A DNA stretch of 64,000 bases from Flaccisagitta enflata (lineage: Eukaryota): positions 16,988,001 through 17,052,000 of the forward strand of contig OZ231126.1 of NCBI GenBank assembly GCA_965153355.1, written 5' to 3'. The notes under the pieces were generated by a model. The model was not told the origin of the DNA and did no database searches. It saw only the letters and a program-made list of their open reading frames with translations. Both the position numbers and the translations under genes were made by a program. Below, in pieces: positions 1 to 57,737 of this stretch (positions within the stretch are counted from its first letter, which is position 1; each line of letters opens with the position of its first letter).

Positions 1-12
1 GAACAGCAACTA

Positions 13-1754
13 ATGGACAGTCATCAAAGTAGTGCCAACTCATTCACTGCTTTAATCCAGCCTCCTTTAGATCTAAATAACCTAATGTATCTGAGAGCAC
101 ACGACACTGACTTGAAACTGGAAAACCTCAACATAGACTCTGTACCTTTAATTTTCCAAAAAAACAACTCCGAAATAATCAAAACTAAACTTGTAATCGA
201 CTCTAGTCTCTGCAGAGATAATTTTATAGTGGATAAAGATGAGTTACACGAGGAAAACCAAAAACAATTGGAAGTTGCTTTAGATGATTTTCATACACTG
301 CAGCCATCTAAGGCTTTAAACTTTCTCAATGAAATTCTTGAAAACTCATCTAACTTGTTTATCATAAAACGCTATTTAGAGGTCGTTGCAGACGACAACA
401 GCATATTTCAAAACCAAATTTTTGAAGGATTGTCTGCTGACAAGTCAATAGATGAGGATATCACAACTCATGATCTAAATATGATTTTCCGGTATACGGA
501 AATAGCTCTTTTTGCGAGAATCGAAATTTCAAAACATCTTAATATGCTCACCCACCCACCCGTCCCTCCAAGCAAAAGCCCCACAAGGAAATTAACAGAT
601 CTTTTAGACCTTCGAATTCCATACCGCTTTGATAACGGTCTCGACCGCACCCGCGAAGAGCGTATTCTTTTCGCATCGAAGGTTTTGAATTCTCCACAAA
701 AACGTACTCATTACAATGACACGCTTGGAATAAGAACGAGCCCTAGTATCAAACTTATCGATCTTACAAATTATTATGATATAAACTTCAAAAGGTTAAC
801 TGATAAACAAAAAGAAAAAAAGTCTGATGAGATAAAATCAGCACTACACGCGTGGCTCTCCGTAGCTGGCAAACTAGGAAAACAAGCAAACGGTCAGTTA
901 ACCGCAGATAACAGACAATATTTGGAAACCTGGCAAAACAGCAATTTGACTATCATAAAAATGGGTAGAAAACTCCTGGAACTTACTTTTAACGCTAAAG
1001 AAAGACAAATGAGACCCAACTCTAAAATATTCAATCGACCTTTTTTGGCATTGAGTCTTGACCGAAGTCATCTTAAATGTCAATTTCATATCAATAGAGA
1101 TAAACTTGTTGATAAATGTAGCCTTACCGTAAAATTCCCTCCATATGCGTCTTATAAATTGGGAAGTTCATTGCAAGAAAATCAAGAAAATGAAAACAAA
1201 ATAAACAAAGTCGTAGTAGGGCCAATAACGCTCACAAAACAATCAAACATTGCAATGTATACTAACATAATAGTTTCAGACCGTCAAAAACTTTTTTCCT
1301 CAATTCGTTTTTCTCCTCAACTACTTTGCGTCAAATCTCCCATATTGGCAGAGACAGCGCGTGAAAGTGAAAGATCAATTCTCTTTAGTTCTGATAGTGA
1401 TTTTATAACATTCTTTCAAATGCCCTTAAAACTTAATAAATACGGGACAAATATCATTTCTACCACCGCGTCACATGGTAAAATCCATCAAGATTTTTTC
1501 AAAGTACATCGTAACCATAACATATTGTCGCAAATCAAAATACGGATCACCGATGAAAATAATATTGATTTTAGGTAAGCTCTCTCAACAAGACCACCCC
1601 ACGGACGGACAGACTTTCAAAATGAATTTTTTTAAAAAACTTCACAAAAAAATGTTTTTTTTTTGCCCCTGTCATTCTCTATAGATTTCCAAGAAATACG
1701 ATGGTTAATTTAGCGTTATGCTTTCGGCCAACTCCTTTATCGATTGATGAATAA
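13..1754 (+). CDS. Polinton/adintovirus-type minor capsid protein (penton, single jelly-roll) with large internal insertion; exons 13-1574 and 1685-1754; possibly 5'-truncated by the window edge
   Basis: N-terminus SANSFTALIQPPLDL..LKLENL resembles the Polinton penton start (N..S.F...LP..I.L...EV.L.EI). The intron 1575-1684 (AG|gtaagc...tctctatag|A) joins ...LSQIKIRITDENNIDFR to FPRNTMVNLALCFRP, matching the penton C-terminal pattern I.I.I.D..G..I.F......LHFR. The frame is open from position 1. Confidence 0.75.
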
Positions 1755-1821
1755 ACTGTATAAGGATGTAAGCACGGACGTACAGAACTTCACACGGTTT
1801 CGACGCCAGACAATGCGTTGA

Positions 1822-1889
<68 letters not shown>

Positions 1890-2267
1890 ATTTATCATAT
1901 CTGTCGGTCGGTCTGTTGATTTGTTAATTTGATTTGATTGACCTTGTTTACATGTATATAGAATAAAAATTGTTTTTTTATCTGTATTTAGAATGAATAC
2001 AATGAAACATTCACATTAGAGATGAATACTCAAAGCGATATTTTTGAACTAATAAGTTCAATGTTAGACACACCACATTTAGAAACACAGAAACAGCAAC
2101 AAAAACCGGAAGAAAACAAAAAGGAAGCCCAACCAAAAAAAGATTCTAAGGAAAAAAAATCAAAGCAAACTCTAAAATCAAAAGATCCAACCCGCACTGT
2201 TCAAAAAAAAGTTTTTAAGAAAAGAGTTAAAAAAAAAGAAAGAATTACTAAAGATAATTTTTTGTAG
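1747..2267 (+). CDS. Small Lys-rich basic protein (about 98 aa if spliced: exons 1747-1767 and 1992-2267; 81 aa from ATG 2022)
   Basis: ORF 2022-2267 is Lys-rich (KKVFKKRVKKKER). An ATG at 1747 overlapping the penton stop gives MNKLYKD|gtaagc. Acceptor tttag ending at 1991 continues in frame (NEYNETFTLEMNTQ...). Confidence 0.5.
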
Positions 2268-2283
2268 TTTGACATCTAAAACC

Positions 2284-3911
2284 ATGTCTGAAACACCGCC
2301 CGTGTTTCGGGCTCCTGCCAACATTGCCTCTCCAGAAGTCAAAGACACTCTACAAAACCATCAAAATGTCATCCAAGATGGAGTTTTATTCCGGAGTTTT
2401 TCTTGTATCTCTACCGTGGACCCTCAGGTTGTTAAATTAACATGGCCATCTATCATCTATCACCTGCCGCATACCTAATAAAACTTATTAATTTTTATAC
2501 TTACTAACAGGAACTGACAACCTCCTCGAGATCTTTGAATTTCTATATAAATGAAAGAGCAGCTCTTTTGAATCCTCAAAAGATGTATTTGAGTATAAGC
2601 CTTCAAATTGTCAAAAATTCAAATGAGGAAGGACTCACCTTTGAAGACGGGTGCATAGGTCCTCCATCTCCTATAAACGGTCTTTTTGACGATGTGTCCA
2701 TTTCAATCGGCGAAACTTGTTTAGGTATCCAGAACCTTATCTTTGAGACTACCATTAACAAAGTCTATGGCCTATAACCTATTACCGTTACCTATTACCT
2801 CTATTACCAGACAGACCCGATACCTACTACGGCCTGCTCAACCACATTCGTGAAATGTTGGAAGTACCTCAAGCCATAAAAAATAGCTGGCTTAACTTCT
2901 ACGAGGGTCATGACAATGAAATTGATGGTTCATTCTCCACACCAAACGATGCTGTTACAAAAAAAGGGAATACACTAGAAGCAAAAAACGCTACTGGGCG
3001 AAGAATTTTAAAAATTTTGAATAAAAAAACAAATCATTACTTTGTCCACCTTGATACACCGCTGAGACAATTTAACGTCCTTCTTCCCTCAGTAAGTTTT
3101 GAACTATCATCAAGGCCAACTCAATCAGTTTATTAAACTAACCATTTTTAATAATCAATCATTTTTTTCTTTTCATTAGGGTCTAGAGATAAATTTAAGA
3201 CTGTTTGTAACAACAGCAGAGAAATATTTTACCGTTACAAATGCGGACTGCAACCCCAAATTCAAAATATTATCAGCGAAATTAATTTGTGAAAAATTAA
3301 TTCTCAAACCAAACTTATTACAGGTGTCTTTTGTTTTACCTTCCTTGAAAAGCACCCACTGCCACGCCACCTTGGAAATAAAAGATCAACATATTTTTTA
3401 CCCTCTACTAATTTTAGGCTATTGAAGCAAGATTGGCGAGATCTTTTATGCAAATCAACTATGAAGCACGCTTTGTAAAAACATTCTCGATCGAGGCTGG
3501 TCACATTGAAAAAAAGATACAGATAAATTCGAGGGATCCCTGTAGCTTTTTGATTATCTTTTTACAAAATAATATTTGCCATACCGGGTCCTTCAAAGAA
3601 AACTATTGGACTTTCAAACAAGAAAATCTCAAACACGCGTACATTTCATGTTCAGCAGGCGATCTAAGAATTCCAAGCTTGCCCATAGATGACATAGGTT
3701 AGTTTTTAATCTATACATATATAGAACTATAAAAAAAACCTTACTTGACTTGATACTTACTCTCTCTCTCTCTCTCTCTCACAGGTGGAGAATCAGCAGG
3801 TAGAAACAAACAAATTGCACGATCGATGCTGGTCCTTAAGAAATCAGCCAAACGAACGAACCCACGGAATGTGTGCAGTAGTTGTACGGACGAAACAGAC
3901 CCTATTTTTGG

Positions 3912-3968
<57 letters not shown>

Positions 3969-4428
3969 TAGGTTATGACTTTTCAACAGATTCAAAAGCA
4001 AAATCAAGCTTTTGGTACATATTACAACAACTTGGCCGCCTCTCAGGCGACAAAGGATCCAAAGACTTTGACTTTGAATCTTGGAAATCTCATCGGTTCA
4101 TATTACCCTTTAATTTAAGTGCTGAGGAGAGCCTCCCTAGCCCTGCAAAAAGAAGAAGAATAACATTAAAACCCATTGCAGTCGCCAACGACTACTCTCT
4201 CTATCTGAGATTTAAAGCGCCTACGACTAAAGTATGGAAATCAAACATCCCTGGCCTAGATACAAGCAAAGTATTCGAATATCAAATGTCAAATATCAAA
4301 TATCAAATATCGAATATCAAATATCATTTTTATAGGTTCTGCGCCTTGTTGTAGTATACTTTCAAAATCGCTCAATTGCTATTGAAAGTAATCGTACTAC
4401 TTGGAGAAGTTTCGAAACGGATCAATGA
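2284..4428 (+). CDS. Polinton/adintovirus-type major capsid protein (double jelly-roll), about 476 aa; exons 2284-2427, 2511-2724, 2811-3091, 3180-3323, 3418-3697, 3785-3799 (putative microexon), 3972-4231, 4336-4428
   Basis: All introns are GT-AG and phase-compatible, giving one stop-free frame. Colinear motifs resemble Polinton MCP: LNFYI..LLNPQKMYLSISLQI, PINGLFDDVSISIG, LDTPLRQFNVLLPSGLEINLRL, FKILSAKLICEKL, INYEARFVKTFSIEAG, GSFKENYWTF, IPSLP..YDF, FILPFNLS, LYLRF..VLRLVVVYFQNRSIAIESNR. Confidence 0.85.
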
Positions 4429-4487
4429 GGATGACCTTTATAGATGACCTTTATAGATGACCTTTATAAAAAATATAACTGAAAATC

Positions 4488-5060
4488 ATGGCATTCACTT
4501 CCAAACAGCTCATTACTAGCAACAATGATTTAATAAAATATTTAAAAAAGACACCAAAAGCATACCAACTCATTAACAAAGGGAAATTCATAATCAACTA
4601 CGACAAACTTCAACATATCTCACCTGAGAGGTTTTCTGGAAAAAAAATGGCCATTATCTTAAATTCCTTACATAGCAATAATGTTGAAAATGTTGACAAT
4701 GTTGGTTGCACTGGTAGTGTAGGACATTGGATTTTACTACTTTTCAACATAAGAAAAAAAGAATGTCTTCTTATTGAAAATTTAGCTTATGTATATAAAA
4801 ATTGTATGAACATAAAACAAGCTATAGATACATTTTGTACATCACATAATTTTTCTTTAATAGATTATAATTTAAAAAGCCAAGGAAATAAGGCTAAATC
4901 TTGCGGGTTCCAAGTCATTTTTTATCTTACCTTTTTCGCTTACAATGATATTCCCAAACTTAAATTGTTAAAACAACGCTTGAAAACTTATTCTTTGGTA
5001 GAACGAGAAAAATATATTCTTCGCCGTGCCCACGATCTATGTAAATATGGAATTTCCTAA
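4488..5060 (+). CDS. Adenain-like (clan CE, C5-type) cysteine protease, virion maturation protease
   Basis: Intact 190-aa intronless ORF. It has IILN...GHWILL (catalytic His), LLIENL (acidic triad residue) and SQ....SCG (oxyanion Gln and catalytic Cys), in the order seen in adenovirus and Polinton proteases. Confidence 0.88.
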   Translation: MAFTSKQLITSNNDLIKYLKKTPKAYQLINKGKFIINYDKLQHISPERFSGKKMAIILNSLHSNNVENVDNVGCTGSVGHWILLLFNIRKKECLLIENLAYVYKNCMNIKQAIDTFCTSHNFSLIDYNLKSQGNKAKSCGFQVIFYLTFFAYNDIPKLKLLKQRLKTYSLVEREKYILRRAHDLCKYGIS

Positions 5061-5153
5061 CGCTACTAGTGTCAACTAAATATCATTGATTTTCTTCGAT
5101 TACTCGCATATCTCTAGCTTTGATTTGGCATATTGCTTAGCTTACGTTTCAGA

Positions 5154-5666
5154 ATGGATTCTGTTTCAAACGAAAACACATCTGTTGATACTACAACAAA
5201 CACTGAAACTGTACTACACAAACCACCGCGGTTCTTTTTTGTACGTAATGAAGTACCCGACCGATCCCTAATTCCAAACCGCGCCCGTGAAATCCCAAAT
5301 CTGGGCCCTGACCAACCACAGCCAGCCATCCCAATCAACGAAGGACACCAGGATCAGGAGCAATACGAAAATCAAGTTTTAAATCATCCACGTCCCAGGA
5401 AAATCGGCTTCTTGTTTGCTTTACTGGTTCTAGTTTTCCTGGCTTCCTCTTTCGCAAGTGACGTCGCCTCAACTAAATACATCTTTGACCTTGGGGACGC
5501 CACATTGAAAGAAAAAAAGAATCCGGCTAATACACAGGCCCTGTTGTCTTCTGCTTCATGCTATTTGAACAACGAAACAAAAATCATCACCATCATTTGC
5601 AACAAAGGCTCACGTCAATACTCGTTAAAAGATCTGAATCTTCTTACCTGCAGATACGAATACTGA
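5154..5666 (+). CDS. Hypothetical single-pass membrane protein (170 aa)
   Basis: ORF from ATG 5154. Disordered Pro/Asn/Gln-rich N-terminus, basic RPRK followed by hydrophobic IGFLFALLVLVFLASSFA, and a C-terminal region with three Cys. Lies inside the viral cluster. Confidence 0.6.
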   Translation: MDSVSNENTSVDTTTNTETVLHKPPRFFFVRNEVPDRSLIPNRAREIPNLGPDQPQPAIPINEGHQDQEQYENQVLNHPRPRKIGFLFALLVLVFLASSFASDVASTKYIFDLGDATLKEKKNPANTQALLSSASCYLNNETKIITIICNKGSRQYSLKDLNLLTCRYEY

Positions 5667-5672
5667 CATTAA

Positions 5673-6104
5673 ATGAATAGCGAATCACTTCAACTAAGAG
5701 CGTTACAAAGGTGAATATAAAGCACATCTTTGTATCTTTTTAGGCGCGACAAAGCACCTCTAACTGGTTGTGTCCGTCGGTCGGTTGGTCAGTCGGTCAG
5801 GTAACGCATTTGTTCGACGATCCATGTGTCGCACCTTATTGACCCACTTGGCCTTATTTCGTTTTCCTTCCCCTTACATAAACAAAAGCATATAATATTC
5901 ATTCATTCTCACACCTTCAGGGAGCTCATACATTCTAGAAAAAAAGCCGGGGAAAAAGGAAACATGTCACGCCGTCGACGAAGGCGGAGGAGGAGGAGAC
6001 GAAAGGGGAAACGTTATAGAAGAAGACAAGCAAAGGGAGCTGGTGTTTTACGTGGAGTAAAAAGGAAGATAGTGAAGAAACGGCGACGTCGTCGAACCAA
6101 ATAA
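5673..6104 (+). CDS. Arg-rich protamine-like putative virion core protein (73 aa; exons 5673-5710 and 5921-6104; 46 aa if started at ATG 5964)
   Basis: MSRRRRRRRRRRRKGKRYRRRQAKGAGVLRGVKRKIVKKRRRRRTK uses mixed Arg codons (cgc, cgt, cga, agg, cgg, aga), so it is not a microsatellite. Upstream exon MNSESLQLRALQ(R) splices in frame via AAG|gtgaat...ccttcag|G. Confidence 0.65.
5737..5862 (+). mobile_element. Short HINE/DINE-1-like host repeat inside the intron of the Arg-rich gene
   Basis: ttttaggcgcgacaaagcacctctaactgg..(gtcg/gttg)n..ggcctt is closely similar to copies at about 11441-11570 and 11777-11895. Confidence 0.7.
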
Positions 6105-6578
6105 TTCGCAGCTAAAATAATTACTGAGCAACATCTATAACTAGCTTATTTTATAACAATGTACATAACACGCGTTACAATGCTGTAAAAAATTGATACA
6201 ATTGCACTTTGATGAAAAGCTTTTAAAATAAAATATTTGAGTGCTTCATGCTAAAAACAAATCTGATTGAAATCACTATCACTGTAACACTGGCGCCATT
6301 TTTTGGCGCTCGAAGGCCTGCACATGTCCAAAATTGTAATTCTATTATCTGGTGTCAATTTTGATATTAAAACGCCGTCTTTCTATCATCTGACCTAGCT
6401 TGTTACAAATATATGTAAAAATAATGTATCACTAGCGCCTTTCCTTTATCTAATCTAGCTTGTTACAAGGATCAGAAACCCATCCAAAAAAAACATAGTT
6501 AAACCCTATATATGTAACTACTGGGGATTGGGGGTCGTGAAGAGAATCAAGGTGCTGATAAGAATGTGGAATATACTA

Positions 6579-7016
6579 CACGCTGTATTTTTTATAAGAA
6601 CACAGTTTTTTAAAGTGACGCACAGCATTCTTATTTCAAGACCAATTTCAGGCTCAAATGTTCTTATCCCATTCATATTTTTGTAGCGATGAAGATTCTA
6701 TATCTTTACTGATAGCAATTCATATTTAATGAAATAAATGAATTTTATTCTTGTTCCATATAGAAATTATCTTTTTTAGGTTATGGAATAATAGAAGTAT
6801 AAATATCACAAGTAATTGGTCAAAATATTTTTTGGGCTGGAGGGTTGTGTGCATTGTTTTTTGGATTGTTTCTTTAAAGAATCATTTCGAAACTTTGCAA
6901 AGAATGTATCTATTCTGAAACCTAAGCCTGGGCGTGTTCTTAACATGTTCTTATTTCTTCGCCAAATCTGAGGCTGATGATTTTATAAACACTGTTCTTA
7001 GACAAAATACAGCGTG
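6579..7016. mobile_element. Tc1/mariner-type MITE
   Basis: TIRs CACGCTGTATTT... / ...AAATACAGCGTG, flanked by TA on both sides. Confidence 0.75.
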
Positions 7017-9605: not shown

Positions 9606-11383
9606 AAACTGGAATCGAAACAAGACTCTTCTGTGACATGACGTGACAACGATAAACAAACAAACAAACAAACTGGAATCGAAACAAGACTCTTCTGTGA
9701 CATGACGTGACAACGATAAACAAACAAACAAACTGGAATCAAAACAGACTCTTCTGTGACATGACGTGACAACGATAAACAAACAAACAAACAAACTGGA
9801 ATCGAAACAAGACTCTTCTGTGACATGACTTGACAACGATAAACAAACAAACAAACAGGCCCTAATTCAGAGCGTGCCCGCGTGCCCAAGGCACTCTTTT
9901 TGATGCTTGGGCACACTGTTTTTGCCGATGGCGTGCCCGGCTGGCACTCTCTCATCACAGCAGGCTAACTGAATTTTATAAAGGTTGCCATTTTTCATTT
10001 GATCGCTTAAAAAATGATTAATTCATTTGATTACCTTTTTGATTTGTCTACCCATACATTCATTCAAAAATTCATTCATTTTATCTCTTATTCATTCATT
10101 CATTAGTTTTTTTTTCCATTCACTCATTCATTCAATTATGTTTTCTTTATTTTTTTGAAAATGGAATTGAATCGCCTTGATTCCATTTACAAGTTTGAAA
10201 TCATATAAATTGATCATAGATCCTGGAAATTTTGGTTAATTTATTCATTCATGAATTGATTTATCTGTTCATACCTTCACAAAGGAGAATTATAAATTTC
10301 TTAACAAAAAGAAATATCAATTTCTGACTTATTCTGTGTTTTGCATTCATTCTTTGCTGAATGAATGAGCATTTATTTGCCAGAATCGCTTTTATAATGA
10401 ATGTTTGTATTTTTGCATGATATAATCAAGTTTGAATACAAAAGTGAGATGGAAATCCGGGCACGCTCACTCTCTGTCGGGCACGCTGAAATTGTGAGGA
10501 GCGTGCCCGGCTTGCACGCTGAACATGATTACTAAATTAGGGCCTGCAAAGAAACAAACTGGAATCGAAACAAGACTCTTCTGTGGCATGACTTGACAAC
10601 GATAAACAAACAAACCAACAAACTGGAATCGAAACAGACTCTTCTGTGACATGACTTGACAACGATAAACAAACAAACAAACAAACTGGAATCAAAACAG
10701 ACTCTTCTGTGACATGACGTGACAACGATAAACAAACAAACAAACTGGAATCGAAACAAGACTCTTCTGTGACATGACGTGACAACGATAAACAAACAAA
10801 CAAACTGGATATGACGATGCAGGTTTGACCGTTGTAGTAGTGGCATGGTATGGTAGTGGCACCATATGGCCACACGCAGCAGAGCGACTCAATCGTAGGG
10901 AGAGCGGGGCATGATCTGGTCAATCTCTGATTGATCAGTCTTTTTCCTTCCATTGTCATTTTTTTTCCCATTGTATACCATATGTGTCTCTCTCTTTCCC
11001 ATGTTGATTTTTGTCCATTTCTCTCTGTATCTTTCTCATTGCCTGAAGAAGCATTTTAGAAATAAATGCGAAAAGTTTGCTTTCATTTCATTTTCTCCAT
11101 TTATTTTTCACCACGTTGTACGACGAGTTCAAAATCATTTACCAAACAAACTGGAATCGAAACAAGACTCTTCTGTGACATGACGTGACAATGATAAACA
11201 AACAAACAAACTGGAATCGAAACAAGACTCTTCTGTGACATGACGTGACAATGATAAATAATCAAACAAACTGGAATCGAAACAAGACTTGTCTGTGACA
11301 TGACGTGACAGCGATAAACAAACAAACAAACTGAAATCGCAACAAGACTCTTCTGTGACATGACGTGACAACGATAAACAAAC
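9606..11383. repeat. Three arrays of a ~55-62 bp minisatellite (9606-9855, 10555-10808, 11144-11383)
   Basis: Unit aaactggaatcgaaacaagactcttctgtgacatgacgtgacaacgat(aaac)n, about 4 copies per array. Confidence 0.9.
9856..10546. mobile_element. hAT-type MITE inserted in the minisatellite
   Basis: 12-bp TIRs CAGGCCCTAATT / AATTAGGGCCTG. 8-bp flanks CAAACAAA / CAAAGAAA fit a TSD with one mismatch. Subterminal GCGTGCCCG repeats. Confidence 0.75.
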
Positions 11384-12925
11384 AGTTGCGCCGCTATAAA
11401 ACGTTCCATGTACACTTCTTTAATTCCACAGAAAGGTCTCTTTTTAGGTGCGACAAAGCACCTCTATAACTGGCTGTGTCCGTCGGTCGGTCTGTCGGTC
11501 TGTCGGTTGGTCTGTAACGCATTCGTTCGACGATCCACACGTCGCACCTTATTGGCCTACTTGGCCTTGTTATGATATAGCTGGAGACATAGTTGACAAC
11601 TTCTGATTGGGTCATTTTTTGAAGCGGCACAAAATTCTTAAACTATTACAATGAAAGCAAAATTTTAAACTACCGTGGAATGAGACATGGATTATGCCCC
11701 ACCACCGTTCAGCGCGCTCATCTGGTACTCTTTCTTGTCATTGGCCCTTGTGGCAAAGAGGTGAAAATTAATGATTTTTTTACGTGCGACAAAGCACCTC
11801 TATAACTGGCTGTGTCGTCGGTTGGTTGGTCTGTTGGGAAACGCATTCGTTCGACGATCCACACGTCGCACCTTATTGGCCAACTTGGCCTTGTTCTATT
11901 GATGGGATTGTTTTTTTTTTTGAATAATTTCATGATAATGCTAATGTGATCTTACTCGTTTGTGACGATATTATAACCCCAGATCACTAGTTACTCGTTA
12001 CTGAAAGATGAGCACCTTTCATTCCTTCGTTATTTTAAATAAAAAAAAGCGAAACAGTAAAAAACACACCAAAAAATGAACATGCGTGACAAACCGACTG
12101 AGGGACGGTGAGACGGAGGGACGGACGGACAAAGTGACTTGTAGTTGTAGAGTCGCTTAACACGCAACTAAAAAATGAAACTGCTTCTCTGCAAATCTTG
12201 CCTTATTTAATTTTAAAGGTTTCATGACTGAAAGCTCTGCAAAAGATTTCCAAATTAGGCAATGGCACTGCCAATGCTGATTATCATAGTTTTTAAAATG
12301 GCAAGTATTTGTTTATTGGTTTATTTAATTGTTTGAAATTTCAATGCATCACAGATTTTGAGAAACGCTAAAAGATTTCTTTTTATGTTATACTGAAAAT
12401 AACAGCTTCGGATATATGATAAAGCCTTAGAAAAATAAATGCGAAGACAGTTTTTGAATGGGTTTGCCCTCTCTCCTTTGGCTCTGTTCTCTTCGCGCAC
12501 GTTCTTCCCAGTTTTATCCAAGAATGACCTATTTTCTCCTTGACATTTCTTTTTTTAACAAAGGATTTGGAATGTCGTGTTGGAGGAAAAATATGGAAAC
12601 AGAAAGAAACATGTATGCTTCAATATTGTTGCAGAGGGGGGCGGGGGAATCGTTATCCGCAACAACGCAAGGCCGGATACACGACCAGTAACTAGTCGCT
12701 TGCGGGTGGGCCACCCCATAATCTGAGGTGAGATTAAACCCCTGGGGTTGCTTGGGGTTGCTTGGGGTTGAACCCCGAGTAAACTCCAAGTAAACCCCAA
12801 GCAACCCTACCTCGGGGTTTGTGCGGGGTTGTTCAGGGTTTGCTCATGGTTGCTCAGGGTTTGCTCCAGGTTTCTTGGGCTTTGTTTGGGGTTGACAGAA
12901 ATCTTTGAATTATTTACTTAAAAGC

Positions 12926-52343: not shown

Positions 52344-57737
<5,394 letters not shown>

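Follow-up and report, generated by a model that had tools for sequence, protein, structure and literature searches.

The window analysed here is a stretch of 64,000 nucleotides from Flaccisagitta enflata (contig OZ231126.1, positions 16,988,001 to 17,052,000, forward strand; coordinates given without a chromosome are those of the window). Its positions 1-6522 are the right, capsid-bearing end of a complete Maverick/Polinton of 47,460 bp (C1:16947063-16994522), in which putative minor capsid, major capsid, protease and core-like genes follow one another, most of them with predicted introns, and in which three (CT)n tracts and one HINE/DINE-1-like host element lie outside the coding exons (Table 1). 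The initial annotation had read these repeats as the mark of a viral locus long resident in this genome and perhaps domesticated by the host.

A complete Maverick/Polinton with copies at unrelated sites

The element has another complete copy, of 49,296 bp, at C2:55854521-55903816. Its terminal inverted repeats are 145 bp long at 99% identity, and in both the C1 and the C2 copy these repeats have the AG-type ends that serve as a criterion for Mavericks/Polintons. Both complete copies (2/2) are bordered by a 6-bp target-site duplication, the hexamer being different in each, and a duplication of this length fits a retroviral-type integrase. A third copy, on C5, has the right 16.6 kb in common and is truncated on its left side. 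The two other copies lie on other chromosomes at different insertion sites and are about 99% alike to the C1 copy over the part that the window covers; since the likeness goes right up to the terminal repeat and no further, with flanks and target duplications that are not shared, the copies do not look as though one old insertion had been doubled by segmental duplication or by the assembly.

More distant relatives abound in the genome, with matches confirmed for 46 of 78 candidates for the protease, 72 of 76 for the minor capsid gene and 65 of 98 for the polymerase, some of these being pieces of one gene. The first 6,522 positions of the window are part of an old Maverick/Polinton radiation in this genome, and the structural tests identify the element as a Maverick. 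Matches to the same three genes crowd together at 100-109 Mb of C1, a Maverick-dense region, and near the end of C2 (C2:101369320-101417855; L057-L062) sequences with 78-93% likeness to the element's end and left arm lie inverted about 48 kb apart; the stretches fetched there hold no capsid or protease match and may represent a non-autonomous or rearranged relative. Among viral contigs none of 13 and none of 84 pattern matches was confirmed as a relative, nor was any of 69 among metagenome contigs, weak negatives in both collections, which may omit entries from the genome under study.

The major capsid protein was recognised through paralog L071, which is 41% alike to the window gene and has an exon of 249 aa that scores 0.97 to double-jelly-roll clusters with 211 of 256 features; PF21738 is found on 37% of the cluster members, and the recognition value of 2252 is slightly below the guide value of 2300. 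The exon has no Pfam match, and sequence searches of Pfam, PHROG and PDB left the capsid, ATPase and polymerase pieces all unnamed; the 61 library relatives of a capsid exon are all at most 395 aa long. For the protease, Peptidase_C5/C48 is found on 14-57% of the members of the matching clusters, and the Pfam match is weak and of clan type.

Table 1. Features of the element's right end and its border, in window coordinates.
Feature	Position (strand)	Details
Putative minor capsid (penton-type) gene, exon 1, 3' part	1..1574 (+)	open frame; start codon ~78 nt upstream of window
Intron of putative minor capsid gene	1575..1684 (+)	predicted; GT-AG, 110 nt, phase 2; paralog comparison
Last exon and stop, putative minor capsid gene	1685..1755 (+)	
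(CT)31	1826..1887 (+)	intergenic spacer 1756-2021, upstream of unpaired acceptor-like site at 1991
Small Lys-rich (basic) open reading frame, 81 aa	2022..2267 (+)	position and ends conserved in relatives
Major capsid protein gene, 8 exons, ~475 aa	2284..4428 (+)	spliced alignment to four paralogs
(CT)10.5	3760..3780 (+)	pyrimidine tract of capsid intron 3698-3784
Micro-exon, 15 nt (5 codons)	3785..3799 (+)	separates introns 3698-3784 and 3800-3971
(TC)23.5	3914..3960 (+)	3' end of capsid intron 3800-3971
Adenain-type cysteine protease, single exon	4488..5060 (+)	Atlas 0.96, Peptidase_C5/C48 clusters of Preplasmiviricota
Open reading frame with hydrophobic (membrane) segment, 170 aa	5154..5666 (+)	has relatives
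Arg-rich core-protein-like gene, two exons (5673-5710, 5921-6104)	5673..6104 (+)	exon ends and phase-2 intron conserved in 9/9 relatives shown
HINE/DINE-1-like host element, 126 bp	5737..5862 (+)	inside core-gene intron 5711-5920 (210 nt)
Right terminal inverted repeat, 127 bp	6396..6522	inverted 100% match to left end C1:16947063-16947189, 47.5 kb upstream
Target-site duplication, 6 bp	6523..6528 (+)	identical hexamer borders left end

Four repeats common to all copies

Tandem Repeats Finder recovered the three tracts where they had been described, and the HINE-like element has numerous genome matches at 84-89% (40 of 2974 candidates scored), so the positions given in the initial annotation stand. 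Its placement of all four repeats in introns holds for three of them, whose introns are backed by paralog comparison, but not for the tract at 1826, which is intergenic, 70 nt past the upstream stop (1755) and 134 nt ahead of the next start (2022). A coding intron around this tract was rejected, as the donor-like GTAAG beside it is absent from both other copies and the tract sits between two genes; a current host repeat at spacer positions 1756-1826 was likewise rejected, its genome matches being the three element copies and no others. None of the four repeats (0/4) overlaps a coding exon, and, with a coding share of 71% in 1-6522, four random insertions would all miss coding DNA with p = 0.007. 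This avoidance only shows selection, and any working element would give it.

All four repeats are found in 3/3 copies, so that the HINE and the (CT)n tracts are not specific to this locus, and, the copies being at unrelated sites, the family has inherited the repeats, which were carried along whenever the element was copied. The tracts measure 62, 172 and 174 nt (at 1826), 20, 82 and 56 nt (at 3760) and 46, 72 and 54 nt (at 3914) in the three copies. A (CT)n tract is also present in the same capsid intron, 3698-3784, of the sister copy L056, about 72% alike, and the spacer of the sister copy holds a short CT-rich seed. To us the CT tracts look like intron pyrimidine tracts grown by slippage rather than inserted repeats. 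The statement that such repeats saturate the flanking DNA was too strong, since the flank (window 6523-64000) has 26 dinucleotide tracts that make up 3.4% of its length, whereas the element has 40 that make up 5.4%, and the 57 kb of flank hold six HINE matches against one in the element.

The insert at 5737 has a (GGTC)n core, T runs at both ends and a 9-bp subterminal inverted repeat that is exact in 10/10 host copies printed and has one mismatch in the element's copy; the 3' stem is 4 bp in most host copies and broken in the element's, and the fold of the insert as a whole has z = -0.04. HINE/DINE-1 are described as non-autonomous Helentrons with subterminal inverted repeats, an inner microsatellite and a T-rich site (PMC4067079), features which our insert shares together with the lack of coding capacity, whereas its exact inverted repeat is only 9 bp and its 3' stem is short. 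It is common to the three copies and absent from 9/9 relatives shown, which have the same intron, and hence it entered an older intron. From eight host copies it differs at 6-8 of about 92 sites and from the other two element copies at 0-2; it therefore predates the latest spread. This age, and the CT tract in the same intron of the 72% sister, agree with the long vertical persistence that had been proposed.

Predicted introns of the viral genes

Spliced alignment to four paralogs predicts seven introns in the capsid gene (2428-2510, 2725-2810, 3092-3179, 3324-3417, 3698-3784, 3800-3971 and 4232-4335) with two of the references and six with the other two (first-pass models lacked the micro-exon). 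The five residues of the micro-exon are continuous in L070, L071 and L074 and conserved in L056, and a 127-nt exon, 3785-3911, was rejected in its favour on the evidence of the spliced alignment and these continuous paralogs. Three of the window's intron positions fall within the natural 249-codon exon of L071, which has no break there. When splice bonuses were removed, the GT-AG rule scored 879 and gave the same seven introns, against 599-782 for eight decoy rules, a control that is partly circular since the references were first derived from window exons. At the minor capsid intron L070 is continuous and L065, L066, L069 and L078 are gapped, with the splice sites kept in 3/3 copies, and the core-gene intron keeps its flanking residues as well as its phase in the 9/9 relatives shown. 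The polymerase has about ten firm introns relative to an intron-free paralog of 1434 codons, leaving aside the first three or four gaps, which are likely alignment artefacts. That paralog (L086:3253-7557; C1:86811253-86815557) has equal-length frames on C2 and C8, and the 48 kb around it hold no capsid or protease match; intron-free and intron-rich polymerases thus coexist in the genome.

Across 21 capsid genes (20 picked from the protease and minor-capsid matches, plus the window gene) there are 2-10 introns per gene, in 45 position-phase classes of which two are doubtful. Most classes are confined to one family or clade and a few are common to families 27% alike, shared positions being found across families 27-53% alike; two putative introns of 46-50 nt in L068 were set aside as likely alignment artefacts. 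The dinucleotide tracts in these capsid genes (6/6) and in the polymerase span (7/7) are all intronic; six of the latter have CT on the sense strand, for the most part close to the acceptor. In a set of 11 capsid representatives the 72 introns measure 60-352 nt, with a median of 96 nt. Of 36 rough gaps in chaperonin genes of the host, which has spliceosomal introns, 19 are longer than 352 nt, and this suggests a size limit on the element's introns. Capsid intron 4232-4335 also holds a 7-bp tandem repeat (4278-4326); the sister copy has a like repeat in the corresponding intron, and RNA runs show high-depth matches that come from other loci.

We consider it very unlikely that these gaps are tolerated insertions in dead genes, or that the copies are doubles of one old insertion. 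The RNA runs, which yielded unspliced pieces only, would fit such an explanation, but GT-AG outscores every decoy rule, the exons are in frame and under selection, and positions are shared across distant families, to which the differing flanks described above are to be added.

Selection, private lesions and the spread of the element

The copies differ at 71-72 of 6522 sites, and the ratio of nonsynonymous to synonymous differences (pN/pS) between them is 0.24 and 0.23, which bears out the claim of selection on the proteins. None of 37 indels lies inside exons as trimmed, although in C2 a deletion of 19 bp reaches into the final codons of the protease, which had been trimmed off. All nine splice-site pairs (9/9) are kept in both other copies, and one 12-codon exon of the window is identical in 3/3 copies.

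The claim that no repeat disrupts an exon is right for the four repeats but fails for the element as a whole and its copies. Two private lesions are host repeats inside polymerase exons, a 769-bp miniature inverted-repeat transposable element (MITE) in C2 (L089:7513-8281; C2:55893013-55893781) and a 126-bp insert in C1; the MITE has imperfect terminal repeats of about 110 bp and is a very young burst, 40/40 scored matches among 1125 candidates being 99-100% alike. The C2 polymerase gene also has a tandem duplication of about 0.9 kb, the C5 capsid gene has a private nonsense codon, and in the sister copy L056 repeat DNA replaces the first half of the capsid gene. Repeats in introns and spacers that are inherited family-wide, beside exon lesions that are private, are the pattern of a selfish replicator, and the private decay of single copies (nonsense codon, truncation, exon insertions) points to a selfish element and not to a host gene.

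We therefore read the locus, with high confidence, as an intron-rich selfish Maverick, long resident in this genome, which probably still spreads as a whole unit and in which the confinement of the repeats results from ordinary purifying selection. The element's genes would be read in the nucleus and depend on the host spliceosome, and the lineage, passed on mostly as chromosomal DNA, would be exposed to the host's mutation processes, namely slippage, which lengthens (CT)n tracts in spacers and in the pyrimidine tracts of introns, and the insertion of small host transposons. If new copies arise only from copies whose genes work, intronic and spacer repeats would become family-wide and exon insertions would stay private to dying copies. 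The same route could create introns, where the target duplication of an insert provides both splice sites. For the older introns this origin is something that we infer, as is the formation of particles.

Domestication, in which the host would keep this locus for use of the capsid or protease and the repeats would have accumulated after insertion, is extremely improbable. Open exons, host-type introns and a pN/pS below 1 are what it would give, and introns in endogenous giant viruses have been read as a sign of assimilation (PMC12768974). A domesticated gene should however be a single locus that has lost its mobility and its ends, and here a complete element with perfect terminal repeats and its target duplication has three near-identical copies, dozens of related elements and a lesion of its own in each copy; moreover, the HINE is older than the copies. 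The initial annotation had itself named near-identical copies all carrying the same repeats as the finding that would speak against domestication, and this is what the alignment revealed. Viral genes can have introns and host repeats without being domesticated, as here both travel with a recently mobile element.

A mutualism at the level of the family, with mobile elements tolerated or used by the host, for example in defence against large DNA viruses or for making particles, seems unlikely, if less so than domestication of the locus. Selection maintains the capsid, protease and core-like genes of many families, the element has BIR-RING (IAP-like) and SPRY genes, and defence roles have been proposed for protist elements (PMC12220804). 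Selection on capsid genes is however also seen in ordinary vertebrate Mavericks (PMC9683012), no helper virus is known here, and the RNA runs gave no reads or sparse unspliced pieces.

Several results weigh against the picture of a working, spliced and selfish Maverick. RNA run X5 gave 0 reads on window 1-6600 (6% of the run was read, and it may be from another organism or tissue). Contigs of X1, X2 and X4, marine metatranscriptomes from one study, match scattered pieces at 98-100%, cross exon-intron borders unspliced, one of them across all of 3324-3417, and show no joints. These contigs may be DNA carry-over or pre-mRNA, and the small word shares of X1-X4 are uninformative on expression; the RNA data give no support to splicing of the predicted introns. 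The putative minor capsid gene, named as such from gene order only, has no Pfam, PHROG or PDB match, the packaging ATPase candidate, picked by gene order alone, has no library match, and the polymerase has no Pfam, PHROG or named homolog. The one exon-bearing frame upstream of the window that resembles an integrase reaches 20.7 bits with PF00665 (E 5e-4), under the cut-off of 32.6. Intron calls at gene edges and in distant families are less sure, and no copy among the three examined (0/3) is free of lesions, which weakens the case for current activity. The 72 established capsid introns are not enriched in flanking direct repeats (mean 2.25 nt, against 2.34 nt), and an origin of these introns by target duplication was thus not borne out.

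A candidate newborn intron and possible leader splicing

The 126-bp insert in the polymerase exon (C1:16960388-16960513; L083:5388-5513, minus) is absent from the C2 copy, which is 98% alike. It is made of a host repeat with matches confirmed for 64 of 157 candidates, the best at 98% over 83 nt, other host copies of which show target duplications of 10-15 bp. Its own duplication, of 12 bp (0/20000 in the null), contains an AG|GT site, so that the insert begins with GT and ends with CAG. The GT and AG ends that this mobile host repeat acquired on insertion are those expected of an introner, and the insert also holds an in-frame stop; we regard it as a candidate that may be either a lesion or a new intron. 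In this host repeat family (L096-L104) the inverted arms are long and the 3' tail is fixed, while the target duplications vary (10-15 bp).

The spacer before the small basic open reading frame ends in an acceptor-like site at most 35 nt from the start codon in 10/10 copies, 7/10 of these sites being above the 95th percentile of exonic AGs, although AT-rich spacers score high on the acceptor matrix anyway. Donors are weak or absent, and the spacer of L069 has neither GT nor GC. Unpaired acceptor-like sites ahead of co-directional starts lie at window 1991 and 5153, at L023:9903 and in the spacers of L063-L078. Trans-splicing or leader splicing of the co-directional genes at such sites is a lead that these sequences offer; if it took place, the tract at 1826-1887, although in no cis intron, would be missing from the message of the downstream gene.

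More tentatively, and as a possibility that we favour less than its opposite, the lineage may be bound to host RNA processing and yet remain mobile and particle-coding, with introns gained and lost by family, gained from host repeats whose target duplication provides both splice sites and kept short by a size limit, and with trans-splicing or leader splicing of the co-directional capsid genes at unpaired acceptors. Were this so, the births and losses of introns in one viral gene could be followed as a dated series within a single genome. In any case, many copies of one gene with different introns in one genome make intron gain and loss testable.

Comparison with known elements

Terminal inverted repeats, the 6-bp duplication, capsid and protease, and probably integrase and polymerase, are common to our element and other animal Mavericks/Polintons (eupolintoviruses, 'adintoviruses'; PMC8097293, 10.1101/2022.07.12.499685), as are a majority of decayed copies with few intact ones and core genes under purifying selection. 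It differs in that capsid, minor capsid, polymerase and core-like genes have predicted introns at family-dependent positions, and in its size of 47-49 kb with 5% dinucleotide repeats. Intact vertebrate Mavericks are described as being without introns, in agreement with Kapitonov and Jurka 2006 as cited there (PMC8097293), and nematode Mavericks as having intronless core genes and intron-bearing cargo genes (10.1101/2022.07.12.499685); intronless core genes are typical according to the former, outside the formal definition, and here seven capsid and about ten polymerase introns are predicted instead. In their accessible parts, PMC8547959 reports no introns in endogenous virophages, and PMC12220804, PMC8502044, PMC11244446, PMC9683012, PMC12130899 and 10.1101/2023.08.22.554363 describe no animal Maverick whose core genes have spliceosomal introns. 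No intron-rich animal Maverick was found in the open literature, a search that left subscription papers, the review PMC11426020 and supplements outside. Maverick core genes, described as intronless, can by the present predictions be intron-rich, and intron-blind gene finders and profile searches would consequently miss such elements.

Introners have been reported in full-length dinoflagellate eupolintoviral elements, mostly gained after integration (PMC12166617), and these elements resemble ours in their terminal repeats, in intron-forming host transposons and in selection against coding insertions. There, however, introner copies are recognisable and the hosts are protists, whereas the introns described here are old, unrelated in sequence, carried through transposition and shared between distant families, and a host repeat can be recognised in one insert only. 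Intron-rich mirusviruses (PMC12768974) likewise have short GT-AG introns, many of them in capsid genes and variable in number and position among relatives, which are taken as a sign of nuclear replication. They belong to another realm (HK97 capsid) and are free protist viruses, and some of their introns have homing endonucleases, which were not seen in the introns of 60-352 nt studied here.

Other genes of the element and the host flank

We take the polymerase gene to be one, perhaps of the protein-primed family B expected of a Maverick/Polinton, from exonuclease and polymerase motifs that are visible in the 1434-codon paralog. A search for longer proteins with a polymerase exon gave 0/290. 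Near the element's left end lie a SPRY-domain gene and a BIR-RING gene (L038:439-1317 and 1318-1908, minus), and the 11-kb left part that bears them has no dinucleotide tract. Beyond the element, the host flank has two long frames of 941 and 715 codons at window 52344-57399 (minus), the first with C2H2 zinc-finger matches below the cut-off, and three arrays of a 60-64-bp tandem unit at 9606-9857, 10547-10805 and 11143-11384.

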